Positions 38,465 to 51,066 of a DNA stretch of 64,000 nt are shown here, one piece after another; the first letter of the stretch is position 1; every line of letters begins with the position of its first letter. The stretch lies in the NCBI RefSeq assembly GCF_050920415.1, contig NZ_CP169309.1; one strand, 5' to 3'. The notes beneath the pieces were generated by a model that made no database searches, was not told where the DNA came from, and saw only the letters and a list, made by a program, of their open reading frames with translations. The translations under genes and the position numbers were made by a program. The stretch comes from Escherichia coli. GTDB taxonomy: Bacteria; Pseudomonadota; Gammaproteobacteria; Enterobacterales; Enterobacteriaceae.

Positions 38465-38578
38465 GAAACGGAGCGGCACCTCTTTTAACCCTTGAAGTCA
38501 CTGCCCGTTTCGAGAGTTTCTCAACTCGAATAACTAAAGCCAACGTGAACTTTTGCGGATCTCCAGGATCCGCTTTTT
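38465..38578 (+). ncRNA. oxyS: OxyS small regulatory RNA
   Basis: Sequence GAAACGGAGCGGCACCTCTTTTAACCCTTGAAGTCACTGCCCGTTTCGAGAGTTTCTCAACTCGAATAACTAAAGCCAACGTGAACTTTTGCGGATCTCCAGGATCCGCTTTTTTTT recognised, including the terminal hairpin and U-tract. Confidence 0.88.
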
Positions 38579-38620
38579 TTTATTCTACAGGCCCACAGCA
38601 AGAGAGCCTGATAGTAACAG

Positions 38621-39904
38621 TTACTCAATCCGATCTTTGACAATAAAGAAGTAACACAGCGCCCCGGTGAACGTCACACAGGCCGCGATAACCAGCGCCA
38701 GATTAAACGAGTGCGTGGTATCCACTACCCAACCGGTTACGATCGGAGCAAAGGAAGCAAAAACAAAACTGCCAAAGTTTTGAATCCCGGCGATGGAAGC
38801 CACTTTTGTTTCTGACACCATCACCTGCACCAGTCCCCATGCAGATGTTCCCGCGAAATGCACGCAGAACAGCGCCATTGAGATAAACGCTACAGCCTGG
38901 GCTGGCGAGGAGGATTGCACGACCAGCAACGTGCCTAATGCCGACATCATCAAACCGCAAACAATAGCCGTTTTACGCGTCTTCGCCAGGTCGTAGCCTT
39001 TTTTCGCCAGCCGATCGACAACAATACCGTTAACCCACATCCCGACCGCCGCCGCGAGGAAAGGAATCGCCGCCACCCAACCGGTTTTCGCCAGACTGAA
39101 GCCTTGCTCGGCTTGTAAATAACCGGGTAACCACGCGATGTAGAGCCAACCGGTATAATTGACGCCAGAGAAACCTAAAATCATCCCCCAGGTTGTCCGA
39201 TGCTTAAACAGCGCCAGCCACTCGCTAAATTGTAATTGTGGACGCGGTTTAACCGGCGCGGAGAGATAGGTCCGTTCTTCGTCGGTCAGGACAAACTGCG
39301 CCCGGTTGCGATACCACGCGTACCAACAGATCCCAACCAGAATCCCCGCCACGCCGATGATGACGAACATTGCCCGCCAGCCCCATGCCAGCTGCATCAA
39401 TACAAGAGCAGGAGGCGCAATAGCCTGACCGATAACGGTAGATGAGTTAAAAATCCCCAGCGCCGTGCCGCGTTCTTTTTGCGCATACCAGTCGGTGATC
39501 GACTTTACTCCCGCAGGCATAAATGGCGCTTCGCCAATACCCAGACCGATACGCATTAAAATAAAGTGGCTAAAAGAATTAACCATTCCTGTTAATGCCT
39601 GCATTAATGACCAGAATATTAAGCCTGCGCCTAAAACTATTCGTGGGCCAAAGCGGTCTAGCAAAATACCGGAAGGGAGTTGTGAAAAACCATAAGACAG
39701 AGAAAATGCAGAAAGCAAAACGCCAAATTCTGTCGCCGATAATCCTAACTCGCCACGAATCGCTTCGCCTGCCACGCTCAATGACGAACGGTCGAGGAAA
39801 TTAACGATCCCCGCCATAAATAATAAAACCAGCGTTACTGTCTGAATACGACGAATCCGTTGCGGTTTATTACCCGCAACACTGGTTGACACATCAACGT
39901 CCAT
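38621..39904 (-). CDS. MFS transporter, anion:cation symporter (ACS) family; putative sugar-acid (hexonate/hexuronate-type) permease, 427 aa
   Basis: ORF track; 12-TM hydrophobicity pattern; N-terminal NFLDR motif and overall similarity to DgoT/ExuT/GudP-type permeases; not at this locus in K-12 as I recall it. Confidence 0.8.
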   Translation of the reverse strand: MDVDVSTSVAGNKPQRIRRIQTVTLVLLFMAGIVNFLDRSSLSVAGEAIRGELGLSATEFGVLLSAFSLSYGFSQLPSGILLDRFGPRIVLGAGLIFWSLMQALTGMVNSFSHFILMRIGLGIGEAPFMPAGVKSITDWYAQKERGTALGIFNSSTVIGQAIAPPALVLMQLAWGWRAMFVIIGVAGILVGICWYAWYRNRAQFVLTDEERTYLSAPVKPRPQLQFSEWLALFKHRTTWGMILGFSGVNYTGWLYIAWLPGYLQAEQGFSLAKTGWVAAIPFLAAAVGMWVNGIVVDRLAKKGYDLAKTRKTAIVCGLMMSALGTLLVVQSSSPAQAVAFISMALFCVHFAGTSAWGLVQVMVSETKVASIAGIQNFGSFVFASFAPIVTGWVVDTTHSFNLALVIAACVTFTGALCYFFIVKDRIE

Positions 39905-39970
39905 TTTTAGCTCCTTGAGCGGAATTAATCGATTTGCTGACTATTCAGAAAATAATTAAGCGAACCGTTA

Positions 39971-41185
39971 TTACCAGTTCCACAATGTGCCATCTTCCAG
40001 TCGTGCGACGGGGAGATACGCCGGGTCATACGGATATTTCGCCGCCAGTTTCTCATCGAAAGAAATACCCAGCCCCGGTTCATCGCCTGGGTGCATATAA
40101 CCTTCATCGAAGCGCCAGCTGTGCGGGAAGACTTCAAGCATTTGTTCGGAATAGCCCATGTACTCCTGAACGCCAAAGTTTGGCACCCAGAGGTCAAAAT
40201 GCAGCGCCGCCGCATGACAAACAGGCGATAAATCTGAAGGGCCATGCGAACCGGTACGTACCTGATAAAGCGATGCAAAATCGGCAATCCGTCGCATCCC
40301 GGTAATGCCGCCTGCATGGGTAATCGTCGTGCGAATATAGTCAATCAGCTGCTCTTCGATTAACTGCTTGCAGTCCCAGATACTGTTAAACACTTCACCG
40401 ACCGCAATCGGCGTCACAGTATGCTGGCGAATCAGACGAAAACATTCCTGGTTCTCGGCAGGCGTCGGATCTTCCATCCAGAACAGGCGGTAATCCTCAA
40501 TGCTCTTCCCAAAGCGCGCCGCTTCGATAGGAGTCAGGCGATGGTGCATGTCATGCAACAGATGTTCGTTAAAACCGAACTTATTACGCACCGCTTCAAA
40601 TAACTTCGGTGTAAAATCGAGATACTTTTCTGAAGACCACAACTGCTCTTCCGGCCACAGGCCTTTGGTTGCCGGTTCATACGCCAGTCCTTTGCCCTTC
40701 GCCAGGCCATAAGTGGTTTGCATACCCGGTACACCGCACTGCACACGAATCGCCTTAAAGCCCATCAGCTGGTGCTTTGCATAGTCTTCAAGGACTTCAT
40801 CAATCGTGCGCCCGGTGGTGTGGCAATAAACCATCACGCCTTCACGAGAAGCCCCACCAAGCAGTTGATACAATGGCATATTTGCCGCTTTGGCTTTGAT
40901 ATCCCACAACGCCATATCAATGGCAGAAATGGCCGACATCGTGACGGGGCCACGTCGCCAGTAAGCACCTTTATAAAAGAATTGCCAGATATCTTCGATA
41001 CGGCTGGCATCGCGGCCAATTAATTGTGGACAAAGATGATCTTTCAGATAAGAAGCGACCGACAATTCGCGACCATTTAATGTGGCATCTCCCAATCCAC
41101 AAAGTCCGCTTGCAGTGGTTATTTTAAGCGTAACGAAATTACGTCTTGGGCAAGTAACAAAAACATCTGCAGCAATAATTTTCAT
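39971..41185 (-). CDS. Enolase-superfamily dehydratase, D-mannonate dehydratase (ManD)/RspA subgroup, 404 aa
   Basis: ORF track 39971..41245; start moved to ATG at 41185-41183 ([13 protein letters not shown]), preceded by RBS CAGGAG; hallmark RspA/ManD blocks [54 protein letters not shown]. Confidence 0.85.
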
Positions 41186-41670
41186 TATTGCAATCTCCTG
41201 TGTTGTAAATAGATGCTTCAAACTTAATTTTACGCCTACTACCATACAAGAGAGAAAGAGCGATTATTCAACCGTGATCACATTAAAAATAAAAATTTCC
41301 GCCGAGGAGAAAAAACACCCTCAAAAACCACCTGAATAATTAACCATTATCGTTAAAACAACACGTTAAATAATCACATAACAAACTCCATTAATCATTA
41401 AATATGAGCGCAGCAATAGAAATGAATTATATTCAATTAATTAAAATATGTATTGATTGATGTATTGAAAATATGATTTTCATGGGGAGAGTGAAGGTAA
41501 AGAAGACGCAAGAATAAAAAGGAATATGACAAATAATAGTTCTGGTTGGGCGTTAAATTTAAGGTCACCAGAATGCTGACAAATTTCTGCCTGAGGCAGT
41601 CCGCCTACGTAGTGTCGCTACTTTATAGGCGTGGTAAGCTCCCCATTTTCAGGGGAGCAATATAAACCAA
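41186..41670 (-). promoter_or_regulatory. AT-rich upstream region of the accessory operon (putative promoter)
   Basis: About 485 nt ORF-free, locally very AT-rich (e.g. 41340-41560), between the argH stop and the dehydratase start; no promoter elements assigned. Confidence 0.4.
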
Positions 41671-43888: not shown

Positions 43889-44893
43889 CTAAATAAGAGA
43901 CTGCGTTTCCGCATAGCCGAAACGAATATTGGCGCACTGTACCGCTTGTGCTGCCGCGCCTTTCAATAAGTTGTCTTCGGTCGCCACAATAATCAGATGT
44001 TCCCCCTGAACGGCAAAACCGATATCGCAGAACGGCAGCCCGACGACATTTTTCAGCGCCGGAACGCCTTTGTCATACAACCGTACCAGCGGTTTATGGG
44101 CATACGCCTGCTGTAACGCTTGCGCGACTTGCGCCTGGTTCACGCCAGGCTTCAGGCGGCAGGTAATGGTTTCGAGAATGCCGCGCGGGAAATTGCCCAG
44201 ATGCGGGGTAAAAATAACGTCAGCACCGAGATGCGTGGCGATCTCCGGCTGGTGGCGATGGGTAAAGACACCATACGGTTGCAGGCTAACTTCACAAAAA
44301 CTATTTGAAATCGCTGCCTTACGTCCTGCTCCGCTCACACCACTGGTGGCGTTGATAACCGGCCACTGATTGAGGTCAAGAAGATCGGCATCAATCAACG
44401 GTTTCAGCGCCAATTGCGCCGCCGTCGGATAACAGCCAGGCACCGCAATTAAGTTCGCTTCTTTTAATTTATGACCGCACCACTCCGCCAGACCGTAAGC
44501 TGCCTGTTCCAACAGTTCCGGGTATTGATGGCTAAAGCCGTAATATTTTTCATAGAAGGTGGCGTCGTTAACACGAAACGCGCCGGAAAGGTCGAACACC
44601 ACACAGCCCGCTTCAAGAAATTGTGGCGCTAAATCGTGACTAACTTCATGGGCAGTAGCAAGAAACACCACGTCCACCCCTGGGCTAAACTCACTGATAT
44701 CCGACATCGGCTGCAACGGCAGATCAACGATGCCTTTTAGCTGCGGATGCAAATCGGAGATTAACTTTCCCGCATCATTGCTTTGCGCTGAAACAGTCAA
44801 AGCGGTTATGTTCATATGCGGATGGCGATTTACATAGGTCACTAGCTCTGCGCCAGCGTAACCGCTGGCACCCACAATCAGCGTATTCAACAT
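43889..44893 (-). CDS. argC: N-acetyl-gamma-glutamyl-phosphate reductase ArgC, 334 aa
   Basis: ORF track; recognisable sequence. Confidence 0.95.
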
Positions 44894-45046: not shown

Positions 45047-46198
45047 ATGAAAAACAAATTACCGCCATTTATCGAGATTTACCGTGCTCTGATTGCCACA
45101 CCTTCAATAAGCGCCACGGAAGAGGCACTCGATCAAAGCAATGCAGATTTAATCACTCTGCTGGCGGACTGGTTTAAAGATTTGGGCTTCAATGTGGAAG
45201 TGCAGCCCGTGCCGGGAACTCGCAACAAATTTAATATGCTGGCAAGTACCGGACAGGGAGCTGGCGGTTTGCTGCTGGCGGGGCATACCGATACGGTGCC
45301 ATTTGATGACGGCCGCTGGACGCGCGATCCGTTTACGCTGACGGAGCATGACGGCAAGCTTTACGGCTTAGGCACCGCCGACATGAAAGGCTTTTTTGCG
45401 TTTATCCTCGATGCACTACGCGATGTCGACGTCACGAAACTGAAAAAACCGCTCTACATTCTGGCGACTGCCGATGAAGAGACCAGTATGGCAGGAGCGC
45501 GTTATTTTGCCGAAACTACCGCCCTGCGCCCGGATTGCGCCATCATTGGCGAACCGACGTCGCTGCAACCGGTACGCGCGCATAAAGGCCATATCTCGAA
45601 CGCCATCCGTATTCAGGGCCAGTCGGGGCACTCCAGCGATCCAGCACGCGGAGTTAACGCGATCGAATTGATGCACGACGCCATCGGGCATATTTTGCAA
45701 TTGCGCGATAATCTGAAAGAACGTTATCACTACGAAGCATTTACCGTGCCATACCCTACGCTCAACCTCGGGCATATTCACGGTGGCGATGCATCTAACC
45801 GTATTTGCGCTTGCTGTGAGTTGCATATGGATATTCGTCCGCTGCCAGGCATGACACTCAATGAACTTAATGGTTTGCTCAACGATGCATTGTCTCCGGT
45901 GAGCGAGCGCTGGCCGGGTCGTCTGACGGTCGACGAGCTGCATCCACCGATTCCTGGCTATGAATGCCCACCGAATCATCAACTGGTTGAAGTGGTTGAG
46001 AAATTGCTCGGAGCAAAGACCGAAGTAGTGAACTACTGTACCGAAGCGCCGTTTATTCAGACGTTATGCCCGACGCTGGTGCTGGGACCTGGCTCAATTA
46101 ATCAGGCTCATCAGCCTGATGAATACCTGGAGACACGGTTTATCAAGCCCACCCGCGAACTGATCACCCAGGTGATTCACCATTTCTGCTGGCATTAA
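45047..46198 (+). CDS. argE: Acetylornithine deacetylase ArgE, 383 aa
   Basis: ORF track 45008..46198; canonical start [15 protein letters not shown] at 45047, preceded by a GAGGTG RBS. Confidence 0.94.
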
Positions 46199-46201
46199 AA
46201 C

Positions 46202-46252
46202 GTAGGCCAAACAATGTCGGATGCGATGCTTGCGCATCTTATCCGACCTACA
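46202..46252. repeat. REP (repetitive extragenic palindromic) element
   Basis: GTAGGCC...CGGATGCGATGCTTGCGCATCTTATCCGACCTAC imperfect palindrome just after the argE stop. Confidence 0.6.
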
Positions 46253-46499: not shown

Positions 46500-49151
46500 A
46501 TGAACGAACAATATTCCGCATTGCGTAGTAATGTCAGTATGCTCGGCAAAGTGCTGGGGGAAACCATCAAGGATGCGTTGGGAGAACACATTCTTGAACG
46601 CGTTGAAACTATCCGTAAGTTGTCCAAATCTTCACGCGCTGGCAATGATGCTAACCGCCAGGAGTTGCTCACCACTTTACAAAATTTGTCGAACGACGAG
46701 CTGCTGCCCGTTGCGCGTGCGTTTAGTCAGTTCCTGAATCTGGCTAACACCGCCGAGCAATACCACAGCATTTCGCCGAAAGGCGAAGCAGCCAGCAATC
46801 CGGAAGTGATCGCCCGCACCCTGCGTAAACTGAAAAACCAGCCGGAACTGAGCGAAGACACCATAAAAAAAGCAGTGGAATCGCTGTCGCTGGAACTGGT
46901 CCTCACGGCTCACCCAACCGAAATTACCCGTCGTACGCTGATCCACAAAATGGTGGAAGTGAACGCCTGCTTAAAACAGCTCGACAACAAAGATATCGCC
47001 GACTACGAACATAACCAGCTGATGCGCCGCCTGCGCCAGTTGATCGCCCAGTCATGGCATACCGATGAAATCCGTAAGCTGCGCCCAAGCCCGGTAGATG
47101 AGGCCAAATGGGGCTTTGCCGTAGTAGAAAACAGCCTGTGGCAAGGCGTACCGAATTACCTGCGCGAACTGAACGAACAACTGGAAGAGAACCTCGGCTA
47201 CAAACTACCCGTCGAATTTGTTCCGGTGCGTTTTACCTCGTGGATGGGCGGCGACCGCGACGGAAACCCGAACGTCACTGCCGATATCACCCGCCACGTC
47301 CTGCTGCTCAGCCGCTGGAAAGCCACCGATCTGTTCCTGAAAGATATTCAAGTTCTGGTTTCTGAACTGTCGATGGTTGAAGCAACTCCGGAACTGCTGG
47401 CGCTGGTCGGCGAAGAAGGTGCCGCAGAACCGTATCGCTATCTGATGAAAAACCTGCGTTCCCGCCTGATGGCGACACAGGCATGGCTGGAAGCGCGCCT
47501 GAAAGGTGAAGAAGTACCAAAACCAGAGGGTCTGCTGACGCAGAACGAAGAACTGTGGGAGCCGCTCTACGCTTGCTACCAGTCCCTTCAGGCGTGTGGC
47601 ATGGGTATTATTGCCAACGGCGATCTGCTCGACACCCTGCGCCGCGTGAAATGTTTCGGTGTACCGCTGGTCCGTATTGATATCCGTCAGGAGAGCACCC
47701 GTCATACCGAAGCGCTGGGCGAACTGACCCGCTACCTCGGCATCGGCGACTACGAAAGCTGGTCAGAGGCCGACAAACAGGCGTTCCTGATCCGCGAACT
47801 GAACTCCAAACGCCCTCTTATGCCGCGTAACTGGCAACCGAGCGCCGAAACGCGCGAAGTACTTGATACCTGTCAGGTAATTGCTGAAGCACCGCAAGGT
47901 TCCATTGCCGCCTACGTGATCTCGATGGCAAAAACGCCGTCCGACGTACTGGCTGTACACCTGCTGCTGAAAGAAGCGGGTATTGGATTTGCGATGCCGG
48001 TTGCACCGCTGTTTGAAACCCTTGATGACCTGAACAACGCCAACGATGTCATGACCCAGTTGCTCAATATCGACTGGTATCGCGGCCTGATTCAGGGCAA
48101 ACAGATGGTGATGATTGGCTATTCCGACTCAGCAAAAGATGCGGGGGTGATGGCGGCTTCCTGGGCGCAATATCAGGCACAGGATGCATTAATCAAAACC
48201 TGCGAAAAAGCGGGTATTGAACTGACGCTGTTCCACGGCCGCGGCGGTTCCATTGGTCGCGGCGGCGCACCTGCCCATGCGGCGCTGCTGTCACAACCGC
48301 CAGGAAGCCTGAAAGGCGGCCTTCGCGTGACCGAACAGGGCGAGATGATCCGCTTTAAATATGGTCTGCCAGAAATCACCGTTAGCAGCCTGTCGCTGTA
48401 CACCGGGGCGATTCTGGAAGCCAACCTGCTGCCACCGCCGGAGCCGAAAGAGAGCTGGCGTCGCATTATGGATGAACTGTCAGTCATCTCCTGCGATCTC
48501 TACCGTGGCTACGTACGTGAAAACAAAGATTTTGTGCCGTACTTCCGCTCCGCTACGCCGGAACAAGAGCTGGGCAAACTGCCGTTGGGTTCACGTCCGG
48601 CGAAACGTCGCCCGACCGGCGGCGTCGAGTCACTGCGCGCCATTCCGTGGATTTTTGCCTGGACACAAAACCGCCTGATGCTCCCCGCCTGGCTGGGTGC
48701 AGGTACGGCGCTGCAAAAAGTGGTCGAAGATGGCAAGCAGAGCGAACTGGAAGCCATGTGCCGCGACTGGCCATTCTTCTCGACGCGTCTCGGCATGCTG
48801 GAGATGGTCTTCGCCAAAGCAGACCTGTGGCTGGCGGAATACTATGATCAACGTCTGGTAGACAAAGCATTGTGGCCGTTAGGTAAAGAGTTACGTAATC
48901 TGCAAGAAGAAGACATCAAAGTGGTGCTGGCGATTGCCAACGATTCTCACCTGATGGCCGATCTGCCGTGGATTGCGGAGTCTATTCAGCTGCGAAATAT
49001 TTACACCGACCCACTGAACGTATTGCAGGCCGAGTTGCTGCACCGCTCCCGCCAGGCAGAAAAAGAAGGCCAGGAACCGGATCCTCGCGTCGAGCAAGCG
49101 TTAATGGTTACTATTGCCGGGATTGCGGCAGGTATGCGTAATACCGGCTAA
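46500..49151 (+). CDS. ppc: Phosphoenolpyruvate carboxylase Ppc, 883 aa
   Basis: ORF track; recognisable sequence, C-terminal ...GMRNTG. Confidence 0.97.
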
Positions 49152-49332: not shown

Positions 49333-51066
49333 ATGCATTCCACAGAAGTCCAGGCTAAACCTCTTTTTAGCTGGAAAGCCCTGGGTTGGGCACTGCTCTA
49401 CTTTTGGTTTTTCTCTACTCTGCTACAGGCCATTATTTACATCAGTGGTTATAGTGGCACTAACGGCATTCGCGACTCGCTGTTATTCAGTTCGCTGTGG
49501 ATGATCCCGGTATTCCTCTTTCCGAAGCGGATTAAAATTATTGCCGCAGTAATCGGCGTGGTGCTATGGGCGGCCTCTCTGGCGGCGCTGTGCTACTACG
49601 TCATCTACGGTCAGGAGTTCTCGCAGAGCGTTCTGTTTGTGATGTTCGAAACCAACACCAACGAAGCCAGCGAGTATTTAAGCCAGTATTTCAGCCTGAA
49701 AATTGTGCTTATCGCGCTGGCCTATACGGCGGTGGCAGTTCTGCTGTGGACACGCCTGCGCCCGGTCTATATTCCAAAGCCGTGGCGTTATGTTGTCTCT
49801 TTTGCCCTGCTTTATGGCTTGATTCTGCATCCGATCGCCATGAATACGTTTATCAAAAACAAGCCGTTTGAGAAAACGTTGGATAACCTGGCATCGCGTA
49901 TGGAGCCTGCCGCACCGTGGCAATTCCTGACCGGCTATTATCAGTATCGTCAGCAACTAAACTCGCTAACAAAGCTACTGAATGAAAATAATGCCTTGCC
50001 GCCGCTGGCTAATTTCAAAGATGAATCGGGTAACGAACCGCGCACCTTAGTGCTGGTGATTGGCGAGTCGACCCAGCGTGGACGCATGAGTCTGTACGGT
50101 TATCCGCGTGAAACCACGCCGGAGCTGGATGCGCTGCATAAAACCGATCCGAATCTGACCGTGTTTAATAACGTGGTGACGTCTCGTCCGTACACCATTG
50201 AAATCCTGCAACAGGCGCTGACTTTTGCCAATGAAAAGAACCCGGATCTGTATCTGACGCAGCCGTCGCTGATGAACATGATGAAACAGGCGGGTTATAA
50301 AACCTTCTGGATCACCAACCAGCAAACGATGACCGCCCGCAATACCATGCTGACGGTATTTTCGCGCCAGACCGACAAGCAGTACTACATGAACCAGCAA
50401 CGTACGCAGAGTGCGCGTGAATACGACACCAACGTGCTGAAGCCGTTCCAGGAAGTGCTGAATGACCCTGCGCCGAAGAAACTGATCATCGTTCATCTGC
50501 TGGGTACGCATATCAAATACAAATACCGCTACCCGGAAAATCAGGGCAAGTTTGATGGCAATACCGATCATGTTCCGCCGGGACTAAGCGCAGAAGAGCT
50601 GGAGTCATATAACGATTATGATAACGCTAACCTGTATAACGATCATGTGGTTGCCAGCCTGATTAAAGACTTTAAAGCAGCAGACCCGAACGGTTTCCTG
50701 GTTTACTTCTCTGACCACGGTGAAGAGGTTTACGACACGCCGCCGCACAAAACTCAGGGGCGTAATGAGGACAACCCGACGCGTCATATGTACACCATTC
50801 CGTTCCTGCTGTGGACGTCAGAAAAATGGCAAGCGACTCATCCGCGTGATTTCTCGCAGGATGTTGATCGTAAATACAGCCTGGCGGAACTGATCCACAC
50901 CTGGTCAGATTTGGCGGGCTTATCTTACGACGGTTACGATCCAACCCGTTCAGTGGTGAATCCGCAGTTCAAAGAAACTACCCGCTGGATTGGTAACCCG
51001 TACAAGAAAAACGCGCTGATCGATTACGACACTCTGCCGTATGGCGATCAGGTGGGTAATCAGTAA
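49333..51066 (+). CDS. eptC: Phosphoethanolamine transferase EptC (YijP), 577 aa
   Basis: ORF track; N-terminal multi-TM domain plus periplasmic sulfatase-like domain; matches YijP. Confidence 0.92.
   Translation: MHSTEVQAKPLFSWKALGWALLYFWFFSTLLQAIIYISGYSGTNGIRDSLLFSSLWMIPVFLFPKRIKIIAAVIGVVLWAASLAALCYYVIYGQEFSQSVLFVMFETNTNEASEYLSQYFSLKIVLIALAYTAVAVLLWTRLRPVYIPKPWRYVVSFALLYGLILHPIAMNTFIKNKPFEKTLDNLASRMEPAAPWQFLTGYYQYRQQLNSLTKLLNENNALPPLANFKDESGNEPRTLVLVIGESTQRGRMSLYGYPRETTPELDALHKTDPNLTVFNNVVTSRPYTIEILQQALTFANEKNPDLYLTQPSLMNMMKQAGYKTFWITNQQTMTARNTMLTVFSRQTDKQYYMNQQRTQSAREYDTNVLKPFQEVLNDPAPKKLIIVHLLGTHIKYKYRYPENQGKFDGNTDHVPPGLSAEELESYNDYDNANLYNDHVVASLIKDFKAADPNGFLVYFSDHGEEVYDTPPHKTQGRNEDNPTRHMYTIPFLLWTSEKWQATHPRDFSQDVDRKYSLAELIHTWSDLAGLSYDGYDPTRSVVNPQFKETTRWIGNPYKKNALIDYDTLPYGDQVGNQ

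Follow-up and report, generated by a model that had tools for sequence, protein, structure and literature searches.

The literature on REPs and BIMEs goes back to 1984. The GTAG/CTAC tetranucleotide next to the REP hairpin is said to be the element recognised by RAYT, and in the REPIN/RAYT model REP doublets reportedly constitute the mobilisable unit, with singlets as relics. Binding of IHF is said to go with BIME-1. For gyrase, binding is documented in multi-REP clusters, and cleavage sites have reportedly been mapped to BIME-2 repeats.

Reported protein ligands of BIMEs are IHF, gyrase and DNA polymerase I (PMC3184786). Two effects have been described for the REP325 array, which attenuates the downstream gene in a partly Rho-dependent manner and stabilises the upstream mRNA; according to the same study, tandem gene pairs with a REP have on average a raised upstream/downstream expression ratio, and REPs cause no uniform change in mRNA half-life (bioRxiv 10.64898/2026.03.23.713779). 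As summarised in PMC12306157, Liang et al. (2015) reported that REPs located less than 16 nt past the stop codon stall ribosomes and depress translation. REPs are also linked to mobile DNA: the natural target of IS621 is the 11-mer ATCAGGCCTAC or ATCGGGCCTAC, with a CT core (PMC11208160).

We have analysed a 64-kb stretch of the Escherichia coli chromosome (the window), which is reversed relative to the K-12 map and in which a sequence-only reading had placed REP palindromes in the argE-ppc and gldA-yijF spacers. Both sites are already known, as familiar elements in familiar positions, and do not amount to a discovery; both spacers carry REPs/BIMEs in K-12 too. We consider it highly probable that they are ordinary E. 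coli REP sites, namely a lone Z2-like REP after argE and a BIME-1 after gldA, with the 3'UTR roles proposed below included. The importance of the sites is low, and the gain consists in a precise annotation, namely a solo Z2-like REP with a stump at the first site and, at the second, a BIME-1 whose Y arm is eroded. The refinements comprise a probably derived deletion allele, the erosion of the Y arm, an exact IS621 target and an alternative repeat in some strains; they leave the overall picture unchanged.

REP sequences in the window and their genomic context

The window was scanned with the Y, Z1 and Z2 consensus sequences by ungapped Hamming comparison, using a cut-off of at least 68% identity. 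This resulted in three matches in 64 kb, as compared to an average of 0.1 in shuffled sequence, and all three fall in the argE-ppc and gldA-yijF spacers. An nhmmer search with the three REP sequences printed in the bridge-RNA paper (PMC11208160) returned the same three sites as the sole matches at E < 0.01. REP palindromes are thus present at both places named by the sequence-only reading, at a frequency far beyond chance. The matches are a Z2-like REP at 46215-46251 (+ strand; 30/37 positions identical to Z2; nhmmer E = 2.9e-3), a Z1 REP at 61645-61674 (+ strand; 30/30, an exact match to Z1; E = 1.2e-5), and a Y REP at 61709-61743 that is inverted relative to the Z1 REP (- strand; 30/35 to Y; E = 8.5e-4). 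Folding energies were -19.4 kcal/mol (z = -6.5) for the first and -13.2 kcal/mol (z = -4.1) for the second, whereas the value of -10.7 kcal/mol for the decayed Y REP (z = -1.6) did not differ significantly from shuffled sequence. The CCTAC tail, with its CTAC tetranucleotide, is present at 46247-46251 and at 61670-61674. Rfam, which is without a general REP family, gave no match at the gathering threshold at either spacer and no such match to naRNA4 anywhere in the window; sub-threshold matches were obtained to naRNA4, at the argE-ppc REP, and to ES036.

The two sites differ in their copy number. The REP query of the gldA-yijF site had between 5 and 44 matching places per E. coli genome. The exact argE-ppc REP variant occurred at one place per genome in genomes with the single-REP allele and is not dispersed; we assign it to the REPs by its consensus match and predicted structure, not by copy number.

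Both REP sites are extragenic and lie in the 3' region between annotated genes of the same strand. The first is located between argE (ending at 46198, with its TAA stop at 46196-46198; +) and ppc (46500-49151, +), with argC (43889-44893, -) and eptC (49333-51066, +) nearby, and the second between gldA (ending at 61600, stop at 61598-61600; +) and yijF (61872-62489, +, with its ATG at 61872). The names that the earlier reading had given to the four flanking genes are correct. The best match to the argE-ppc spacer was found in strain Z0117EC0005 (100% identity), and identity to most E. coli was 97-98.5%. No repeat feature is listed in this spacer in the K-12 RefSeq annotation.

The window also contains an insert between oxyS (38465-38574) and argH. 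This insert (38575-41670) encodes an MFS transporter (38621-39904, -) and an enzyme of the mandelate racemase/MLE type that belongs to the enolase superfamily (39971-41245, -), followed by a very A+T-rich stretch at approximately 41250-41560. Neither the consensus scan nor the nhmmer search of the 64-kb window detected a REP at either of its edges, in agreement with the earlier remark that no REP flanks the oxyS-argH island. The REP sites can be set aside as an explanation for this insert.

The argE-ppc spacer: a solo REP within an allele series

The sequence that follows the argE coding region reads TAA-AAC-GTAGGCC-AAAC-AA-TGTCGGATGCGATGCTTGCGCATCTTATCCGACCTAC. Allele comparison identified GTAGGCC (46202-46208, +), which starts 3 nt past the stop codon, as the 7-nt beginning of an inverted Y REP, a stump that does not belong to the REP at 46215-46251. 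K-12, O157 and other Escherichia species have the parent Y REP in full; at the position of the stump, every multi-REP allele reads TAAAACGTAGGCCGGATAAGG..., whereas the window reads TAAAACGTAGGCCAAAC. The stump is followed by a deletion scar of six bases (46209-46214, +), in which AAAC (46209-46212) derives from the Y-Z linker GTTGCCAAACTCCAG; compared to the two-REP allele, 36 bp are absent before AAAC and 14 bp after it. The solo Z2-like REP (46215-46251, +) then follows within the 3'UTR of argE, before the ppc promoter region, and ends in CCTAC. The segment 46202-46252, which had been read as a typical REP palindrome, does hold a full REP, but it is not one long palindrome, since the stump and six bases precede the REP. 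Similarly, the description of the palindromes as lying just after stop codons applies to argE, where the stump and the hairpin begin 3 nt and 17 nt past the stop, respectively, and less well to gldA, where the first REP begins 44 nt past it. The REP differs from the published Z2 sequence at seven positions, of which one is in the loop and six are located in three stem pairs that have changed from C-G to T-A, from T-A to G-C and from C-G to T-A. As six of the seven changes form such compensatory pairs, the hairpin is preserved.

The length of the argE-ppc spacer varies among strains, being 301, 351, 411, 474 or 597 bp. The K-12 spacer (597 bp) contains six REPs in three units of 123 bp, each composed of an inverted Y REP, a 29-nt linker, a Z-type REP and a 23-nt linker; strain 2018-05-2CC (474 bp) has two units (4 REPs) and O157:H7 (351 bp) a single unit (2 REPs). 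The alleles with two, four and six REPs thus step by 123-bp units, and the window allele (301 bp; one REP and the stump) is the shortest. Its spacer corresponds to the one-unit spacer of O157 with two deletions, one of 36 bp between two GCC trinucleotides and another of 14 bp, the rest being identical. A probe for the single-REP junction matched 1,529 of 5,426 complete E. coli genomes (28%), ST131 included, and the intact linker-to-REP junction was found in 3,011 genomes, at up to nine places in one genome. No intermediates with a single deletion, of either the 36 bp or the 14 bp, were detected in the 5,426 genomes.

A different situation was observed in strain 4621, whose spacer of 411 bp contains no REP and an unrelated repeat of the GGGAGAGGGTTAGGGTGAGGGG type instead. 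This allele (positions 300-460 of the extracted locus) has kept part of the linker that separates the BIME units, CTCAAATGATGCCCAAA.

At the same position, REPs were also found in other species of the genus, with 10 REPs in E. whittamii, 4 in Escherichia sp. E1V33, 4 and a remnant in E. albertii, and one in Escherichia sp. MOD1-EC7003, the single-REP junction of which is identical to that of the window. The stop-proximal Y REP is 3 nt past the stop codon in E. whittamii and E1V33 and is in the same position in E. albertii, and the Z-type REP is near-identical across several Escherichia species. The array of E. albertii terminates, after the second Y+Z unit, in a shortened REP tail, TTATCTGACCTAC, that is joined directly to the conserved flank ACCTTTGGTG, and by its sequence this tail is read as a second, independent partial REP loss in the argE-ppc array. 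Outside the genus, Kluyvera ascorbata has a different REP-like inverted pair of its own (GCCCGGCGGCGCTTCGCTTACCGGGCCTAC / GTAGGCCGGATAAGCGCAGCGCCATCCGGC), which looks like an independent colonisation of the same intergenic site, and no REP was found at this place in Enterobacter and Superficieibacter.

Since other Escherichia species carry Y+Z pairs, it is most likely that the paired state came first and that the single-REP allele is derived. The solo REP would then be the remnant of an alternating Y/Z array of the BIME-2 type, as seen throughout the genus. We infer that slippage across hairpins, between short GCC repeats, may have removed the Y REP together with some of the linker (36 + 14 bp); slippage as the cause is a conjecture, and the 14-bp loss is without flanking microhomology. 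Clean excision of the Y REP by a RAYT-type activity was considered and rejected as unsupported, since the breakpoints leave GTAG and three stem nucleotides and are located neither at the GTAG nor at a CT boundary.

The gldA-yijF spacer: a BIME-1 with an eroding Y arm

The gldA stop codon is followed, in this order, by a non-REP hairpin, the Z1 REP, a linker of 34 nt and the inverted Y REP. The hairpin, retrieved in an inverted-repeat search, is perfect over 11 bp (61608-61634, +), begins 7 nt past the stop and has no T-run; it precedes the Z1 REP (61645-61674). The linker (61675-61708) is of the L type, can be aligned to the linker of K-12, and contains an IHF-like core flanked by an A/T tract. 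On the minus strand, its segment 61685-61697, ATTCAATGCATTG, has one mismatch to WATCAANNNNTTR, corresponding to 8 of the 9 positions of the IHF core; this pattern occurs in the window at chance frequency (55 matches against 47.5 expected) and was used only alongside the linker homology. The Y REP (61709-61743, -) differs from its K-12 counterpart by four substitutions and one indel that have destroyed two stem pairs and the GTAG (GTAGGCCGG in K-12, TATGTCTGA in the window), and its hairpin has a folding energy of -10.7 kcal/mol as compared to -15.1 kcal/mol in K-12. The inverted Y and Z1 pair that characterises BIME-1 is present, and we classify the site by its sequence as a BIME-1 (RIP/RIB) with an eroding Y arm.

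The BIME-1 allele was found in 4,588 of 5,426 E. coli genomes (approximately 85%, at a coverage of at least 80%), and another allele is apparently present in about 1 in 8 genomes, as judged from 5 of 40 evenly spaced rows that were sampled. One such allele, that of strain SWHEFF_69 (spacer of 330 bp), was read, and an unrelated GC-rich repeat was found to replace the BIME. The version present in the window shares about 93% identity with most E. coli and at least 99% with 23 of 5,459 matching records. This divergence suggests either a rare haplotype or a recombined segment.

A GC-rich palindromic repeat with CCCTC..GGGAGAGGGTTAGGGTGAGGGG, which is probably the boxC class of older surveys, is present instead of REPs both in strain 4621 at argE-ppc and in strain SWHEFF_69 at gldA-yijF (approximately 235-420).

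The BIME-1 is bracketed by two direct copies of a 23-nt sequence (ACTCCC...GGGAGTTT) that are 83% identical. The first (61611-61633, +) is contained in the hairpin at 61608-61634, and the second, which has diverged (61764-61786, +), is followed by a T-run and adjoins a terminator-like site (61774-61803), the only one before yijF and downstream of the BIME. In SWHEFF_69, these two copies are found on either side of the unrelated repeat. It looks as if the occupant of this spacer either was inserted into a former gldA terminator or duplicated it. The best matches were all in two pieces, and none of them showed an empty site with one hairpin and no insert.

The Rfam family ES036 (CssrF sRNA, RF02751) matched 61667-61709 (-) with 27.3 bits and the K-12 copy (268-310, -) with 34.8 bits, both below the threshold of 37.6 bits. 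This family may represent the linker sequence of BIME-1 elements instead of a single, unique sRNA gene.

The tail of the Z1 REP (61664-61674) reads ATCAGGCCTAC and is an exact natural IS621 target, with its CT core at 61671-61672. It is the only exact occurrence of ATCRGGCCTAC in the window; the tail of the argE-ppc REP, ATCCGACCTAC, has two mismatches to the target. In strain 2014C-3061, an IS621 of 1,279 bp (877-2155 of the extracted locus) is inserted in the orthologous gldA-yijF Z1 REP at ATCAGGC|CT|AC, with ...TTATCAGGC-CT-TGTATT at the left junction and ...ACAGTAT-CT-ACCAAT at the right. The notion of REPs as recombination targets is borne out for the orthologous site by this insertion within the CT core, which makes the gldA-yijF Z1 REP a documented target of the IS621 bridge recombinase in nature.

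Possible roles and comparison with described systems

By analogy with REP325, the local 3'UTR hairpins likely stabilise the upstream mRNA and attenuate read-through. Each REP would be transcribed within the 3'UTR of the upstream gene, where its stem-loop would block 3'-to-5' exonucleases and protect the argE or gldA mRNA, and would partly attenuate read-through into the same-strand downstream gene, ppc or yijF. The effect at argE and gldA may nevertheless be nil, because REPs do not uniformly lengthen mRNA half-lives. The first hairpin after argE is located 17 nt past the stop codon, as compared to 7 nt in K-12-type alleles; being outside the range of less than 16 nt for which translation is reportedly depressed in the above summary of Liang et al., it should escape this depression.

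On the DNA itself, the linker of the BIME-1 would probably serve as an IHF site, and the Z1 tail would provide a ready-made site for IS621 insertion. The earlier reading had proposed gyrase or IHF sites for both palindromes. Because IHF is said to go with BIME-1 and gyrase with BIME-2, we divide these proteins by site: an IHF site is plausible at gldA-yijF, the only spacer with IHF-type architecture, whereas strong gyrase binding is unlikely at the solo REP of argE-ppc, where the multi-REP architecture of the gyrase type has been lost.

An alternative that is less probable than these roles, but has to be weighed seriously, is that the sites are true REPs and functionally neutral relics, i.e. 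selfish or RAYT-dependent DNA in decay whose presence makes no measurable difference to argE, ppc, gldA or yijF. The state of both sites is compatible with decay, given that the argE-ppc REP is a singlet next to the stump of its partner, that GTAG and some of the stem are gone from the Y arm at gldA-yijF, and that some strains are free of REPs at either locus and have an unrelated repeat instead. However, the argE-ppc hairpin has been kept by three compensatory changes, the Z-type REP is near-identical in several Escherichia species, and tandem gene pairs containing a REP show an average expression bias, all of which speak against neutrality.

It is doubtful, and clearly less probable than neutrality, that the single-REP allele is a natural regulatory variant instead of neutral decay. 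If so, the loss of the Y REP would take the first hairpin, now 17 nt instead of 7 nt past the argE stop, just beyond the distance at which ribosome stalling is reported, and would shrink a multi-hairpin attenuator to one hairpin. The single-REP lineages, which account for 28% of complete E. coli genomes and include ST131, would, compared to K-12-type strains, produce more ArgE per transcript and allow more read-through from argE into ppc. The number of REPs would then be a tunable non-coding dial of expression at the junction of arginine synthesis and anaplerosis. Independently of this reading, the argE-ppc spacer represents a natural series of REP copy numbers (0, 1, 2, 4, 6 and 10) for tests of dose and of distance to the stop codon.

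We regard it as very improbable that the argE-ppc spacer encodes a nucleoid-associated, HU-binding non-coding RNA of the naRNA4 type that organises the chromosome. The naRNA4 model (RF02564), which is derived from REP325, matches 46213-46247 through its second hairpin (model positions 42-76; E = 3.8e-4), and each K-12 unit gives a full-length match of 53-57 bits, but the window keeps half of the two-hairpin unit and scores 32.3 bits against a gathering threshold of 59.5; moreover, REP325 and naRNA4 had no measurable effect on nucleoid compaction (bioRxiv 10.64898/2026.03.23.713779). That the two sites are intrinsic terminators of argE and gldA that resemble REPs by chance is suggested by their G+C-rich hairpins and 3'UTR location, but this reading is extremely unlikely and already refuted by the exact or near matches to the REP consensus, besides the 5 to 44 places per genome for the gldA-yijF query, the absence of a U-run after either REP and of any terminator-like site in a scan of argE-ppc, and the plain terminator, without a REP, that Enterobacter sp. 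Bisph1 has at the argE-ppc position.

Several described systems are comparable to the two sites. Both sites resemble the REP or palindromic units (Y, Z1 and Z2) in their length, their imperfect palindrome, the succession GATGCG...CTTATC...CCTAC and their extragenic 3'UTR location. They differ in that the argE-ppc REP, with its three compensatory changes in the stem, is a variant specific to its locus and itself undispersed, and in that the Y REP of gldA-yijF is without GTAG and two stem pairs. As to BIME-2/REP325 arrays, the argE-ppc spacers of K-12, E. albertii and E. whittamii hold two to five tandem Y+Z units of about 123 bp. In contrast, the window keeps one Z-type REP at this place, which is half a unit and not an array, and the two-REP architecture that has been tied to gyrase cleavage and naRNA4 is absent from it. 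The REPIN/RAYT system is paralleled by the inverted doublet at gldA-yijF and by the singlet with its partner stump at argE-ppc, as in a decaying doublet, but the window contains no RAYT gene. With respect to the targets of IS621, an element of the IS110 family with a bridge-RNA recombinase, the site at 61664-61674 is unoccupied in the window and the argE-ppc tail is two mismatches off, whereas the former is an exact target whose ortholog is occupied in strain 2014C-3061. BIME-1 is matched by the gldA-yijF site in the inverted Z1 and Y REPs and in the 34-nt linker, which contains 8 of the 9 positions of the IHF core and an A/T tract and can be aligned to the K-12 copy; the Y arm is degenerate in the lineage of the window, and the IHF site is predicted here from sequence.
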